Assembly (NCBI RefSeq): GCF_009831105.1
Contig: NZ_WUUQ01000001.1
Coordinates: 870,001-902,000 of the forward strand
Reading direction: 5' to 3'
DNA: 32,000 bases
DNA from: Copranaerobaculum intestinale
GTDB taxonomy: Bacteria > Bacillota_I > Bacilli_A > Erysipelotrichales > Erysipelotrichaceae
Within the stretch, counting starts at the first letter, position 1; each line of letters begins with the position of its first letter. The notes under the pieces are model-generated. The model had not been told where the DNA came from, did no database searches, and saw only the letters and a list, made by a program, of their open reading frames with translations. The translations under genes and the position numbers were made by a program. Positions 8,602-31,988 of the stretch are shown piece by piece.

Positions 8602-8811
8602 AATTCAAAATGTTTCTTATACAAAAGATAATTGTTAGGATAATAGAAGGCAATTTTTTTGATGTCTAAATTATATAAACAAGAACATATTTTTAAGTTT
8701 CTATATCTTGTTTTAGTGAAAATAAGGTATAATAAGTAACGGATATGTTATCGAAACTGGGAGGACCATTCTTCGATGTGCACATATACTGATGAAGAGA
8801 GGGTGCATAAT

Positions 8812-10506
8812 ATGAAAGAAACGCTGTACTTAAATAAAAATTTAGCTATTATTAATTTTTCACGGGCTTATTCCCGTACGTATGATGAATTTTTAAATTC
8901 TCCTACGTTCCATAACTTTGTCCGTGTCTATATCGATTACCTGAAAGAATTTGATGAAGACCTTTATCGATTTGCTTTAAACGGAAAGACGCCGCGAGAG
9001 GCGAATTTTGAAATATGTAAAACGCTTCGTCAGCTGATGGTTCTGAATCTGGATGAGATTGATAATGTCTATCTGCACGATAAAATGAAGCTCTATTCCT
9101 TTGTTGAAGAATTATATAATTTCTGGAAGCAGCACCAGCGCTTTTCGATTATGAATTTGGGAAAAGGCAATGCATTTCAAGAATCTTCGTATATTGAAGC
9201 GGACAGCGGCTTCAATAATATGATTCGCAGTATCTACCGTAAATTGGAAGAAAAGATTCAGGGGAAGGGAAACAGCGTATACCGTCAGCTGCAGGCCGGA
9301 ACCAATTCCTCGATTGCTTTAACTGTTCGTACACCGAAATTGAGTGAAAAATATGACGCATTGCGTAAGATACCGTTTATTGAATCGGTAATGTTAAGAA
9401 CACCGTTGATTTTGCACCCGAAGTCTAATAAGCGAACCGGCTCTTTTGTCGAGCGCGAGGATAATCCGATCCATACTTTTACCGGGGATAAGGATACATG
9501 GTTTTGTTATCCGGCTAAGATCGGAACCCTGCTGGCGTTTATTTATCTGCATCGTGACTTTTTATCAAGCGGTATTTCCTTGGCTAATTTGTTTGAGCTG
9601 GCTTCGGCTGAGGACTGCAGCCGCAAGCCGGATTTGGTTTTGTTGTTCGGTAATGAGGATGGACGCAATGAATGCACGTTTCATCATGATCTTGAAGAGA
9701 ATATTTGGGTGGGCTGTGTGTCCTATCACGAGCGGATTGAATATTTCGGTTATATGAAAAAAATGTCACTGACCCTGCATAACCTTGCGATGATGGAAAA
9801 GGGCTGGCTGCCGATCCATGGTGCGTTTGTCAACATTACACTGAAGAACGGCCGTAAAAAGGGAATCATGCTGATGGGTGATTCCGGAGCCGGAAAGTCT
9901 GAATCCATTGAAGCACTGCGGGCGCTCGGTAACGATAAAATCCGCAAAATGGAAGTTGTCTTCGATGATATGGGAACTATCCATCTCGAAGATGGTGTAC
10001 CATATGGCCAGGGAACAGAGATCGGAGCATTTATCCGTCTGGATGATCTGGATCCGGGAACTCCATATCGTGACATGGATCGTTCGATCTTCATGAATCC
10101 GGATTCCTCCAATGCCCGCGTCATTACCCCGGCAGCGCCATATGATGTAGTTGCGACCAATCATAAAATTGATTTATTCTGTTATGCGAATAATTATGAT
10201 GATAAACTCGGAATCCGAGAAATTGAGGATATTGAAGAAGCAAAAGCAATTTATATTGAAGGTAAACGCATGGCGCTCGGAACCACACAGGAAGTCGGTA
10301 TTTCGACTACGTACTTTGCAAATCCGTTCGGTCCGATGCAGAAACAAAAGGAGTGCGGTAAGATCATCGACGAGGTGTTTGCGAAGCTCAAGCAAAACAA
10401 TGTCCTGGTTGGAGAAATTTTCACCCACTTGGGATTTAATAAAGAAGACCGTGAAGGTCTGCATGTCGCTGCCCAGGATCTGCTTGATTTCATTGAAAAG
10501 GACTGA
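8812..10506 (+). CDS. Uncharacterised protein with C-terminal HprK/PEP-carboxykinase-fold P-loop domain
   Basis: LPIHGAFVNI...GIMLMGDSGAGKSESIEAL...VVFDDMG matches the HPr kinase pattern HG...G(D/E)SGxGKSE...DD. The N-terminal ~330 aa carry no motif I recognise. ATG at 8812 is preferred (AGAGGG 8 nt upstream); the ORF track starts at 8776. Confidence 0.6.
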   Translation: MKETLYLNKNLAIINFSRAYSRTYDEFLNSPTFHNFVRVYIDYLKEFDEDLYRFALNGKTPREANFEICKTLRQLMVLNLDEIDNVYLHDKMKLYSFVEELYNFWKQHQRFSIMNLGKGNAFQESSYIEADSGFNNMIRSIYRKLEEKIQGKGNSVYRQLQAGTNSSIALTVRTPKLSEKYDALRKIPFIESVMLRTPLILHPKSNKRTGSFVEREDNPIHTFTGDKDTWFCYPAKIGTLLAFIYLHRDFLSSGISLANLFELASAEDCSRKPDLVLLFGNEDGRNECTFHHDLEENIWVGCVSYHERIEYFGYMKKMSLTLHNLAMMEKGWLPIHGAFVNITLKNGRKKGIMLMGDSGAGKSESIEALRALGNDKIRKMEVVFDDMGTIHLEDGVPYGQGTEIGAFIRLDDLDPGTPYRDMDRSIFMNPDSSNARVITPAAPYDVVATNHKIDLFCYANNYDDKLGIREIEDIEEAKAIYIEGKRMALGTTQEVGISTTYFANPFGPMQKQKECGKIIDEVFAKLKQNNVLVGEIFTHLGFNKEDREGLHVAAQDLLDFIEKD

Positions 10507-29599: not shown

Positions 29600-30511
29600 A
29601 TGACGGATGGAAATGCTAAGATGAAAGAAAAAGGGAAAGGAAATCAGGAAACGATGAAGAAGAACGTATTGGATAGGAATATTATGAACCGGTATCAGAA
29701 ATATCTGTATGGGGAAGAGCGAAGCGAAGCTACCATAAAGAAATATATGAGAGATATCGAACATTTTTATGAATATCTGCCGGCAGCGAAGGTTGTAACG
29801 AAGGAACTGCTAGTCGCATATAAGCGAAGCTTAACAGATATCTATAAAGTAAGCAGTATCAATAGCATGCTGGTTGCGCTCAACGGCCTCTTAAGCTATA
29901 TGGGGGTTGGACATCTGAAGCTTAAGCTGCTGAAGGTTCAGAAGAAGGTATTTCATATGGAAGACAGGGAGCTCAAGAAAGCAGAATACAAAAGGCTGCT
30001 GGAGACAGCTTTGAAAAAAGATAATAAAAGATTATATATGCTGATCCAGACGATCTGCGGAACCGGGATCCGTGTATCCGAGCATCGCTTTATCACGGTG
30101 GAGAGCTTGAAGGAGGGGCAGGTAATGGTAAGCAATAAGGGGAAGAGTCGAATTATCTTTATCCAAAAGAAGCTGAGAAGACTCCTATTGGAATACTGTC
30201 GGGAGGCGAAGATCGAACGGGGATCGATCTTTATCACGAAAAACGGAAGACCGATGGATCGCTCAAACATCTGGAGTGCGATGAAGCAGCTCTGTGAGGA
30301 AGCGGGAGTTGAACGAAGGAAAGTTTTTCCGCATAATCTGCGGCACCTCTTTGCATATACCTATTATGGACTATACAAGGATGTAGTGCGGCTGGCTGAC
30401 ATCTTGGGCCATTCGAGTATTGAGACGACAAGAATCTATACGATGAGCAGCGGAAAGGAATGCCAGCGGTCGTTAATGAGGATGGGCTTGGTCGATCTGA
30501 TAAAAACATAA
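29600..30511 (+). CDS. Tyrosine site-specific recombinase (phage integrase family; stand-alone invertase-like)
   Basis: Catalytic set visible: R (GTGIRVSE), K (NKGKSRIIF), HxxR (HNLRHLFA), H (LGHSSIETT), Y (TRIY). N-terminal SAM-like core-binding domain (ATIKKYMRDIEHFYEYL). The true start is ambiguous: in-frame ATGs at 29600, 29621, 29654 and 29684, none with a strong RBS. Confidence 0.9.
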   Translation: MTDGNAKMKEKGKGNQETMKKNVLDRNIMNRYQKYLYGEERSEATIKKYMRDIEHFYEYLPAAKVVTKELLVAYKRSLTDIYKVSSINSMLVALNGLLSYMGVGHLKLKLLKVQKKVFHMEDRELKKAEYKRLLETALKKDNKRLYMLIQTICGTGIRVSEHRFITVESLKEGQVMVSNKGKSRIIFIQKKLRRLLLEYCREAKIERGSIFITKNGRPMDRSNIWSAMKQLCEEAGVERRKVFPHNLRHLFAYTYYGLYKDVVRLADILGHSSIETTRIYTMSSGKECQRSLMRMGLVDLIKT

Positions 30512-30551: not shown

Positions 30552-30580
30552 TTACCACATAATGTGTATTATGTGGTCAA
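30552..30580. repeat. Recombinase-target-like site L: TTACCACATAA-TGTGTA-TTATGTGGTcA
   Basis: 11-nt inverted arms (one mismatch) around a 6-bp centre whose asymmetric core is GTGT. Located 41 nt after the recombinase stop. Confidence 0.7.
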
Positions 30581-30795
30581 ACGCCGTAAGCTTATTAAAA
30601 AACCGCAATAAACGGAGGCTGATTATCGCAACTATTTGTAAATATTTAATATATGTGAGAAATGTAACCGTTTTACATGTTTTATCTTACCATGTTACTT
30701 TTTCTTCAACAACGAATATTGGTAAATAACGAAATATGTTGGGGAAATCATATAAATCACATAAAATCACACAGATCATCACGCTTATGTATACG

Positions 30796-30816
30796 AAAAA
30801 AAGGCATGATCATGCC
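30796..30816 (-). terminator. Weak terminator-like element on the minus strand inside the invertible segment
   Basis: Perfect 14-nt palindrome GGCATGATCATGCC (30803-30816), followed on the minus strand by T7 (A-run 30796-30802 on plus). The stem is short. Confidence 0.3.
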
Positions 30817-30901
30817 GCAAACAGACGATTTGTCAGAAATATACTGCCAATATAAGTAAAAAAACAAGATATCTGAAATGACATCCGATGGTGATGTTTT
30901 T

Positions 30902-30930
30902 TTGTATGTCAAAAGGATCAGGAATATGCT
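30902..30930 (+). promoter_or_regulatory. Promoter candidate at the right edge of the invertible segment, facing the LytTR gene
   Basis: -35 TTGTAT (30902-30907), 17-bp spacer, -10 TATGCT (30925-30930). Both hexamers are imperfect. Confidence 0.3.
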
Positions 30931-30932
30931 CG

Positions 30933-30960
30933 TTACCACATAATACACATTATGTGGTAA
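30933..30960. repeat. Recombinase-target-like site R: TTACCACATAA-TACACA-TTATGTGGTAA
   Basis: Perfect inverted arms (12 nt if the flanking T/A pair of the centre is counted). The centre ACAC is the exact reverse complement of the site L centre. Located 27 nt upstream of the LytTR gene ATG. Confidence 0.7.
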
Positions 30961-30986: not shown

Positions 30987-31796
30987 ATGGACAAAAAGAG
31001 TATTGAACAATGTCTTGCGCTAAGTAAGGAAGTGATGATCCGGCACTTTCATGGGGATAATGAGTTTGCTGTATCACATATGCATAAAAACTGTATCTGG
31101 ATCGGTTCATGTGCCAGTGAATTCTATCAGGGGAAGGATACCATCGCTGCGGTCTTGCGCCAGGAAGCAGCCGATCTGCCGCAGGTAGAGCTGTCGGCCT
31201 TCGAATATATGTGTGTATCGCAGGATGTACATGACTGTACCGTAACGGGCAGACACGTCGGAAGGACACGGTTAGATTCCGGAGAGCTGTATCGGGACAT
31301 GCAGCGAGTCACATTTGTGTGGAAAAAGGAAAAGGATGAATATCGGATCATGCATATTCATGTATCAAATCCAATGAACAATTTGAAAGAGGGAGAGGTG
31401 TTTCCCCACCGAATGGGGAAGTATGCAAAGGAATATCTGAACATGCTGGTGAGCCGAGAGGTGGAAAAGAACGGAACGATCACGGTCAAGGATCAGCAGA
31501 ATCGGTTTCATATCATCCAAATCAGCGATATCTTGTATTTTGAAGCATTCAATATGAATTGTATCCTGCATCTGAAGAACGATGATGATGTATTCGGAAG
31601 GATCACGCTGCTGGAGGTGGAGAAACAGATTCAAAAAAAGAATGCTGATATGTTCAAGCGGGTACATAAGAGTTACTTAGTTAATAAGTATCATACAGCA
31701 GCTTTAAAGCGTTATGAGATAACAATGAGCAATCAAGAACAAATTCCGGTATCTCAGAAACGCTATAACGAGGTGAGAAAATGGCTCCATCAATAA
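30987..31796 (+). CDS. LytTR-family DNA-binding regulator with N-terminal NTF2/SnoaL-like (DUF4440-type) domain; no receiver domain
   Basis: C-terminal LytTR pattern (ISDILYFEAFNMNCILHL..., FKRVHKSYLVNKYH, IPVSQKRYNEVRKWL). N-terminal ~130 aa have an NTF2-like signature (IWIGSCASEFYQGKDTI...RVTFVWKKEKDEYRIMHIHVS). Start set at ATG 30987, downstream of site R with a GGGAAAGGGA RBS; the ORF-track start at 30888 would run through the repeat. Confidence 0.8.
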   Translation: MDKKSIEQCLALSKEVMIRHFHGDNEFAVSHMHKNCIWIGSCASEFYQGKDTIAAVLRQEAADLPQVELSAFEYMCVSQDVHDCTVTGRHVGRTRLDSGELYRDMQRVTFVWKKEKDEYRIMHIHVSNPMNNLKEGEVFPHRMGKYAKEYLNMLVSREVEKNGTITVKDQQNRFHIIQISDILYFEAFNMNCILHLKNDDDVFGRITLLEVEKQIQKKNADMFKRVHKSYLVNKYHTAALKRYEITMSNQEQIPVSQKRYNEVRKWLHQ

Positions 31797-31802
31797 GGGG
31801 GG

Positions 31803-31988
31803 ATGATATTGAAGCAAGGAAGTCGATACGAAATAGGACAAAGCTATTCACATGAGGAATATCGAAACGCGGGTGTGGCTCACATAAAGCAGGGGAATGG
31901 TCGCTGTGAATATTATCATAAGGGTAAATTGATTAGTGAGGAAGCAGCGGAAGAGCTGGTAAGGAGCTATCAGAAAAAGCTGAAATAA
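31803..31988 (+). CDS. Hypothetical small protein (61 aa)
   Basis: ORF 7 nt after the LytTR stop on the same strand. The G-rich RBS-like run abuts the ATG, so the start may be the TTG at 31809. Hydrophilic, no recognisable motif. Confidence 0.3.
   Translation: MILKQGSRYEIGQSYSHEEYRNAGVAHIKQGNGRCEYYHKGKLISEEAAEELVRSYQKKLK

Follow-up and report, generated by a model that had tools for sequence, protein, structure and literature searches.

Within a 32,000-nucleotide stretch of the Copranaerobaculum intestinale genome (contig NZ_WUUQ01000001.1, positions 870,001 to 902,000; hereafter the window, numbered from its first letter), a pair of dif-like palindromic sites lies between a gene for a Xer-like tyrosine recombinase and an operon headed by a LytTR regulator. 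The recombinase gene (29600..30511, plus strand) ends 40 bp ahead of the proximal core site, site L (30552..30579). The distal core site, site R (30933..30960), is placed 381 bp from site L, and the first cargo gene (30987..31796, plus strand) begins 26 bp past it. Between the sites are 353 bp (30580..30932) that, like the sites themselves, carry no strand of their own and that we mark as an invertible segment on account of the inverted flanking sites and of a homologous core in three sister species. A short segment, inverted repeats that bound it and a nearby site-specific recombinase gene, by which invertons are in part recognized, are found together. We consider it probable, mostly from sequence comparisons, that this locus is a self-contained phase-variation module, in which an invertible promoter switch sits between the recombinase gene and the LytTR operon.

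Site L reads TTACCACATAA-TGTGTA-TTATGTGGTcA and site R reads TTACCACATAA-TACACA-TTATGTGGTAA, each 28 bp long. Both were placed by the letters, a motif search and repeat analysis, and site L also by the arm logo of the family described below. An initial annotation of the window had given these positions and sequences, and they match exactly. It had also reported the motif nowhere else in the 32 kb, and a search of the window for TTACCACATAA-N6-TTATGTGGTAA with up to three mismatches indeed returned sites L and R only; none is expected by chance, with 0 matches in 100 dinucleotide-preserving shuffles. As an inverted repeat, the two sites are 100% complementary over 26 nt (30552-30577 / 30935-30960, with 357 nt between the arms), and as a direct repeat they are 86% identical over 28 nt, differing at the central GTGT/ACAC. 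In formal terms, the layout of each site is that of a 12-4-12 palindrome. Its central 4 bp are the sole asymmetry, as the annotation had proposed, and the spacers TGTGTA (L) and TACACA (R) are reverse complements of each other. The sites are matched at 27 of 28 positions, and the lone arm mismatch sits in site L. Flipping the segment in silico gives the junctions GCAGCGTTACCACATAATGTGTATTATGTGGTAACGAGCA (left) and GGCGTTTGACCACATAATACACATTATGTGGTAAGAGAGA (right). The left one is a perfect palindrome with 13-nt arms, an outcome that had been anticipated and that is correct by construction; its extra CG would arise by chance once in 16, and the family arm logos give it no support. The label dif-like, taken from the same annotation, is apt in that a single base separates the central 17 bp of site L from E. 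coli dif (sequence from PMC3025954), with 17 of 28 positions identical over the whole site.

The recombinase, 303 amino acids as called, was assigned from Pfam, NCBIfam and PDB matches and from its homologues. It belongs to the tyrosine recombinases by both of its domains, each above the curated threshold: the catalytic Phage_integrase domain (PF00589, 93.6 bits, cut-off 27.1; 1.5e-26) and the N-terminal SAM-like core-binding domain Phage_int_SAM_1 (PF02899, 25.0 bits, cut-off 22.3). The best NCBIfam matches are XerA (130.2 bits, cut-off 220), XerD (104.4, cut-off 329.6) and XerC (102.7, cut-off 335), with XerS at 63.4 (cut-off 267). None of these Xer equivalog cut-offs is reached, and neither are those of the FimB/FimE-type invertase models (NF007371, 27.6 bits vs. 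222; NF007370, 25.8 vs. 221). The closest solved structure is archaeal XerA (PDB 5hxy, 1.2e-20), whose YTGVRVGE, HVLRH and GHASVATTQIY align with GIRVSE, HNLRH and GHSSIETTRIY of the window protein. The catalytic Arg, His-x-x-Arg and His...Tyr motifs are all there, in an intact open reading frame (ORF), and the beta-hairpin lysine (NKGKSR) was placed by eye. The true start may be a Met about 18 codons in, as homologues are 283-290 amino acids long. We infer that this enzyme catalyzes recombination at sites L and R.

The first cargo gene encodes 269 amino acids, with a SnoaL-like N-terminal part and a C-terminal LytTR DNA-binding domain (Pfam LytTR, 3e-16; SnoaL_3, 8.5e-5), and its sequence is shared in full (100% identity) with a protein of Copranaerobaculum intestinale / Clostridiaceae bacterium DONG20-135. 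It is followed by a small ORF of 61 amino acids (31803..31988, plus strand), which is kept after the LytTR gene in orthologues. Three other Erysipelotrichaceae species carry the locus in the order recombinase, switch, LytTR gene, 63-amino-acid ORF, GGDEF-EAL gene and gene for a large beta-helix protein; the positions of the last two would fall past the window end at our own locus. Both the LytTR regulator (window 30987-31796) and the GGDEF-EAL enzyme of related loci (L131, 3417-5165; L152, 3505 onward) begin with a SnoaL-like (NTF2-fold) domain. A small-molecule-sensing module common to two proteins of one switched operon is unusual for LytTR proteins, in which a receiver domain is the norm.

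The arms of sites L and R (ACCACATAA/TTATGTGGT) recur far beyond this species. An exact scan for TTACCACATAA-N6-TTATGTGGT, with one genome taken per species, found them in at least 119 genome loci; all family counts given here are among the matches listed. Nearly all of these loci belong to Clostridia, both metagenome-assembled genomes (MAGs) and isolates (Lachnospiraceae, Oscillospiraceae and others). In the 82 sources with exactly two sites (up to four arm mismatches allowed, with the window and its duplicate L120 included), the sites are mostly 180-380 bp apart, with a mode near 230 bp. The spacer sequence varies from locus to locus, usually as T-NNNN-A, and partner spacers are exact reverse complements in 80 of the 82. 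Such covariation is expected if the partners must share an overlap for strand exchange and be inverted, and neither an operator model nor a hairpin model predicts it. Palindromic spacers are avoided (0 of 75 observed vs. 4.55 expected, P=0.009), which fits selection keeping site polarity unambiguous. Across the four arms, conservation of the nine bases ACCACATAA is 92-100%, except at one position of the distal outer arm (72%).

What stays constant beside the site pair is the recombinase, whereas the cargo varies. In 75 loci, the window among them, a homologous recombinase gene is directed toward the pair, and in the 74 others the homologues (42-63% identity) end 3-178 nt before the proximal site. 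These enzymes belong to a family of at least 8,000 clusters at 90% identity (E < 1e-40), annotated only as 'integrase' or 'tyrosine-type recombinase'. In 59 of 66 loci, the distal site is followed at a short distance by a cargo gene on the same strand. The cargo includes ten TetR regulators, BspA-type leucine-rich repeat, collagen-like, C-type lectin, Listeria-Bacteroides repeat, cohesin, Cna_B and choline-binding proteins, as well as an O-antigen ligase, acyltransferases and a TIR protein; phase-variable loci usually carry cargo of this sort.

With the direction of the recombinase gene taken as reference, 63 of 75 loci have inside the segment a sigma-70 promoter that matches or approaches the consensus TTGACA-17-TATAAT; it faces the cargo in 14 and the recombinase in 49 (binomial P=1e-5 for the recombinase-facing bias). 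In both classes the −10 ends a median of 32-33 nt from the segment end that it faces, so that the two sets occupy mirrored positions, and shuffled segments never score 13. Related genomes differ in the same way. In the pair L082/L084, the flanks are collinear (88% identity upstream, 87% downstream) and the core aligns at 88.6% in the minus orientation; the pairs L034/L115, L065/L095 and L082/L103 likewise show collinear flanks around a core in reverse orientation. When L084 was flipped in silico at its site centres, it became collinear with L082 through both junctions, swapped inner arms included, and identity rose from 60% to 82%, with similar improvement for the other pairs. Because a flip between site centres restores collinearity, the breakpoints lie inside the 28-bp sites. 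In addition, for at least 12 of the single-site loci the contig breaks off no more than about 120 nt from a site, the pattern expected where both orientations coexist in a sample, which is suggestive but not proof.

These comparisons, more than the window itself, support the interpretation put forward in the initial annotation, namely that L and R are tyrosine-recombinase core sites in inverted orientation whose recombination would invert the DNA between them. The adjoining Xer-like recombinase gene and the reverse-complementary partner spacers agree with it, as do internal promoters in both orientations and related genomes that differ by an exact inter-site inversion. A REP-like (repetitive extragenic palindromic) element, scattered through genomes with random spacer orientation, had been named as the finding that would speak against it; the copies are instead paired, with inverted spacers, beside a recombinase gene.

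Several members of the family depart from the common pattern. Seven loci (L027, L049, L052, L067, L082, L094 and L096) have three or four sites, the extra one being a tandem copy 29-40 bp off with the same spacer (in L082, as oriented, the sites are at 2525, 2808 and 2843); such copies may permit alternative inversions or be a duplication scar. Three loci of one genome (L035, L098 and L102; MAG CAZGJC, uncultured Clostridium sp.) share one spacer, TATAAA/TTTATA, an exception to locus-specific spacers, and recombination between these loci is possible if all are active. Hits outside Bacillota came from a Rikenellaceae MAG (L038), a Gastranaerophilaceae MAG (L021) and a Spirochaetales MAG (L045). 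The first two are complete modules with a recombinase gene, and upstream L021 shares 82% identity with a Monoglobaceae locus, which suggests horizontal transfer or mis-binning. The L045 pair, 1,989 bp apart with unrelated spacers, looks like a chance or unrelated match. Among viral contigs, 1 of 2.9 million carries a site pair; this lone contig of a viral collection (L162, 878-1131; IMGVR_UViG_2524023161_000007) has sites 230 bp apart with the spacers TGATGG/CCATCA. Many contigs terminate inside the switch or no more than about 30 nt from a site, among them L018, L028, L047, L058, L064, L073, L076, L091, L098 and L100, as well as L132 and L136; coexistence of both orientations in a sample, breaking the assembly graph, would leave this pattern.

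The segment at our locus contains its own set of conserved signals. A candidate switch promoter lies on the minus strand (30684..30712), with a −35 TTGTTG (30712-30707), a 17-nt spacer and an extended −10 TGgTAAGAT (30692-30684). The pattern TTGnnn-14-TGn-TAAGAT stands at the equivalent place in all four orthologues, and ATCTTA is invariant in their alignment. Just downstream of the minus-strand −10 is the palindrome TGTAACCGTTTTACA (30663..30677, no strand assigned), invariant in 4/4 orthologous loci, which is possibly an operator or a 5' leader element. On the other side of the promoter, two 8-bp direct repeats (30719..30746, again unstranded; TTGGTAAA at 30719-30726 and TTGGGGAA at 30739-30746) have a 20-bp period and end 6 nt upstream of the minus-strand −35. 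Promoters activated by LytTR proteins of the AgrA/ComE type are recognized by direct repeats of about 9 bp, about 21 bp apart, just upstream of the −35. We regard the repeats of the window as candidate LytTR boxes. Their 20-bp spacing is kept in 4/4 LytTR-cargo orthologues, and the related switch L152, which has GGDEF cargo, lacks them; in sequence they do not resemble the AgrA consensus. Finally, a scan and folding identified a terminator-like hairpin with a T7 run on the plus strand (30880..30903), 29 nt before site R. It is conserved in orthologues with compensatory changes (ACATC/GATGT vs. GCATC/GATGC) and, across the four species, stands 11-31 nt ahead of the distal site.

Promoter, boxes, palindrome and terminator of the window are thus conserved in the three sister species, where the minus-strand order of the core is direct repeats 20 bp apart, TTGnnn-14-TGn-TAAGAT and the palindrome ATGTAAAACGGTTACA. 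The spacers of these orthologues are TGCATA, TGTGTA or TGCGTA, each with its reverse complement in the partner site. A promoter with an opposed terminator was also considered as a general cassette design for the whole family and was rejected, as only a minority of the loci have terminator-like hairpins, and these may lie on either strand.

From these features we propose the following mechanism. A single Xer-like recombinase (29600-30511) would bind sites L and R at their four arms (ACCACATAA/TTATGTGGT), which are nearly identical. As the arms are symmetric, site polarity would be set only by the 6-bp overlap (TGTGTA vs. TACACA), and because the overlaps are reverse complements, strand exchange would invert the 353-bp segment rather than delete it. 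The segment is predicted to hold the promoter of the downstream operon, that is, of the LytTR regulator and the 61-amino-acid ORF and then, judging from orthologues, of the GGDEF-EAL and beta-helix genes. In the present orientation, the promoter TTGTTG-17-TGgTAAGAT would read leftward into the 3' end of the recombinase gene, while the plus-strand terminator-like hairpin would shield the cargo from read-through. With the promoter directed toward the recombinase and the hairpin standing before site R, we read the sequenced state as OFF, a call that we favour by a modest degree. Inversion would aim the promoter at the LytTR gene and turn the operon ON. The 20-bp-spaced direct repeats upstream of the −35 might then let the LytTR protein reinforce its own expression; this autoregulation is a tentative proposal, about which we have more doubt than confidence.

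Several observations weigh against this account, or against parts of it. The window promoter is not near consensus and has a weak −35, its position weight matrix score falls within the shuffled range, and a weak plus-strand candidate (TTGGGG-17-TAAAAT) is also present, whose −10 is not conserved in L137. Because the promoter score is unremarkable and this second candidate exists, it is conservation that carries the ON/OFF call. The terminator arrangement, moreover, is not general among family loci. No orthologue was found in the flipped state: 22 contigs from the three sister species share the orientation of the window, L120, the only other contig encoding the same recombinase, has the identical orientation, and 14 contigs of two close relatives of the recombinase are uniform in orientation within species. 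An internal 25-mer of the segment had no match in JGI metagenomes, and the outer-flank pattern of a C. innocuum-like relative matched nothing in metagenomes. Flipping at this locus itself is accordingly something that we infer, with no flipped copy among the comparable assemblies of four species. One sister species, species B (L131, L134 and L135), keeps the sites, the orientation and an intact operon and has no adjoining recombinase gene or remnant.

Such uniformity would be expected if the locus were a genuine member of the inverton family that had lost the ability to flip in this lineage, leaving regulation constitutive. This is unlikely in our estimation. One orientation in all available assemblies of this locus type, the loss of the adjoining recombinase gene in species B and the arm mismatch in site L do point that way, but the recombinase ORF of the window is intact with all catalytic motifs, the sites match at 27 of 28 positions and the spacers match perfectly. 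Assemblies also report the majority state, and 49 of 63 family members are in this same state. Species B fits uneasily with a switch locked OFF, as its arrangement requires a trans-acting paralogue or another promoter. Two species-B contigs (L132 and L136), moreover, break inside the distal site, the kind of break that mixed orientations produce in assembly (again suggestive, not proof). Orphan site pairs that have no adjoining recombinase gene were also observed at L020, L035, L043 and L068, in addition to L131/L134/L135; they may be served in trans by a paralogue or be fossils.

Other explanations would dispense with inversion altogether. Perfect dyad symmetry, arms of 11-12 nt and the gene for a DNA-binding regulator next door are what one would expect of operators for a dimeric transcription factor, acting for example by looping around the promoter region, and the sites fold as hairpins with a 12-bp stem (−17 to −19 kcal/mol, z-scores −5 to −6), as would terminators, attenuators or processing sites in RNA or DNA. 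For an operator, however, a symmetric site gives no reason for reverse-complementary centres in nearly every two-site locus, or for the avoidance of palindromic centres. The constant neighbour is the recombinase, with cargo that varies widely, related genomes carry the segment in opposite orientations, with breakpoints that fall within the sites, and the regulator next door has a LytTR domain, of a family that recognizes direct repeats rather than palindromes. We hold the operator explanation to be highly improbable. Hairpin function is scarcely credible: neither site is followed by a U-run, pairing is all that a hairpin requires, yet the arm sequence is invariant across at least 119 genomes, without compensatory changes, the reverse complementarity of the partner loops has no RNA rationale, and the window has no Rfam match.

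The sites might also mark the ends of a mobile element, or serve for its attachment, with the recombinase acting as integrase, or they might be boundaries of the kind found in elements that exploit Xer (IMEX, integrative mobile elements exploiting Xer, or pdif-like). Their function would then be movement instead of switching. The sites are dif-like, and the module precedes unrelated cargo genes and occurs in several copies per genome. In two strain pairs, a block starting about 130 bp upstream of the recombinase gene has different upstream contexts. Yet the recombinase gene lies outside the repeat pair, which encloses some 200-350 bp with a promoter and no gene, and inverted spacers give inversion, not excision. 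The rest of the window is housekeeping (MgsA, U32 peptidases, ProRS, ABC transporters, amidase, GS-III, rubrerythrin, TrkH/TrkA and YunB), and no mobile-element genes, tRNAs or Rfam families were found across it. The pair is, moreover, confined to a single contig in the viral collection. We judge this explanation very unlikely, and mobility of the larger block, if real, would be a separate property. The strain pairs in question are L137 vs. L138 (homology from 1046) and L152 vs. L153 (from 1872), which have unrelated DNA on the left. The block of recombinase, switch and cargo is 99% identical in both pairs from about 130 bp upstream of the recombinase start, and may as a whole ride on a mobile or recombining island. 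Elsewhere in the window, a 576-amino-acid ORF (8776-10506, plus strand) is without a Pfam match at E < 1e-5.

If the locus is indeed an invertible promoter switch, the LytTR regulator would be expressed in only a subpopulation of C. intestinale cells and, by orthology, the GGDEF-EAL enzyme of cyclic di-GMP (c-di-GMP) metabolism and the large beta-helix surface protein would be limited to that subpopulation as well. The family counts among the most widespread switch types in gut Clostridia and Erysipelotrichia. Its fixed 9-nt arm consensus and free spacer make an exact-pattern detector that could find switches and read their ON/OFF state from assemblies where reads are lacking. The variety of natural spacers might also provide orthogonal recombination sites with which to engineer anaerobes. 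A bolder and more speculative idea, which we think rather unlikely to hold in full, is that the family of at least 8,000 clusters consists of autonomous Xer-derived cassettes with universal arms and private, never-palindromic 6-bp overlaps. These would be natural, mutually orthogonal lox-like sites that coexist without chromosome rearrangement, to which the present locus would add a LytTR positive-feedback promoter over c-di-GMP enzymes, a DNA switch stacked on a transcriptional bistable loop. Three points seem to us worth recording: how large the family is, the combination of a dif-like core with non-palindromic spacers specific to each locus, and the presence of LytTR and c-di-GMP genes in the cargo.

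The family probably corresponds to inverton group 139 / invertase group 35 of the hCom2 study (Microbiome 2025), for which 33 invertons, 32 of them in Clostridia, are reported in 17 strains (PMC11892184). The study also describes a tyrosine recombinase beside nearly every group 139 inverton and read-level shifts of orientation in culture, and gives as an example Clostridium sp. D5 (positions 3525576-3525832), with a 26-nt inverted repeat and a start-to-start spacing of 231 bp (PMC11892184). In this example, the repeat is as long as that of the window and the spacing equals the modal spacing of our family. The correspondence is drawn by geometry, taxonomy and neighbouring gene only; an inverted repeat of the pattern ACCACATAAT-N4-ATTATGTGGT would make the identity with group 139 formal. 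Arm-spacer-arm anatomy, locus-specific spacers, resemblance to dif, this species and LytTR cargo do not figure in the accessible part of the paper. A full-text literature search for ACCACATAA / TTATGTGGT returned unrelated primer-type matches only. The ACCACATAA...TTATGTGGT consensus and the rule of private spacers were found in no paper, and DeepInverton (PMC11602134) is silent on the motif.

Among well-known switches, fimS with FimB/FimE, the Bacteroides Mpi/Tsr systems and the C. difficile RecV (Cdi) switches likewise consist of a promoter segment bounded by inverted repeats that gives ON/OFF phase variation, and, as here, the segment lies between a recombinase gene and surface or signalling cargo. 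The gene order fimE-fimS-fimA is the order of recombinase, switch and cargo at our locus. The C. difficile gene pdcB is reportedly a case of a c-di-GMP enzyme under switch control, to which the switched operon described here would be similar, its own c-di-GMP enzyme being placed there by orthology. The differences are equally clear. The enzyme of the window is Xer-like rather than FimB/FimE-like, as its score against NF007371 indicates (27.6 bits vs. a cut-off of 222), and where those switches have short inverted repeats, each repeat here is a complete symmetric core site. Mpi and RecV, furthermore, are single master enzymes for many loci, whereas here each switch has a dedicated recombinase.

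The 28-bp, 11-6-11 layout is common to our sites and to the Xer/dif systems of chromosome-dimer resolution, above all those with a single recombinase (archaeal XerA, XerH/difH and XerS/difSL). Those systems, however, have one site at the terminus, whereas here two inverted sites stand 381 bp apart, with many pairs per genome and inversion as the expected outcome, and no link to FtsK or cell division is evident at the window locus. With recombinase scores below the Xer cut-offs, paired sites and many pairs per genome, this is not a Xer/dif system by membership. The pdif modules of Acinetobacter plasmids offer another comparison. There, dif-like sites in opposite orientation bracket a discrete DNA module that carries genes, mostly for resistance, presumably uses the host XerC/XerD and moves between plasmids; our segment differs in being a gene-less, chromosomal promoter segment with a dedicated recombinase.

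In mechanism, a parallel exists with Cre/loxP and Flp/FRT, in which the arms are symmetric, the asymmetric spacer alone sets polarity, and inverted sites give inversion. Engineered orthogonal lox sites such as lox511 and lox2272 depend on the principle that only matching spacers recombine, and the locus-specific spacers of our family would, by analogy, be orthogonal in nature. The dimensions differ (an 8-bp spacer and 13-nt arms in lox vs. 6 bp and 11-12 nt here), and the likeness is one of mechanism, not of close sequence relationship. The principle of the switch is not new: devices of this kind are known, and the locus adds one whose lox/dif-like anatomy is unusually clean.

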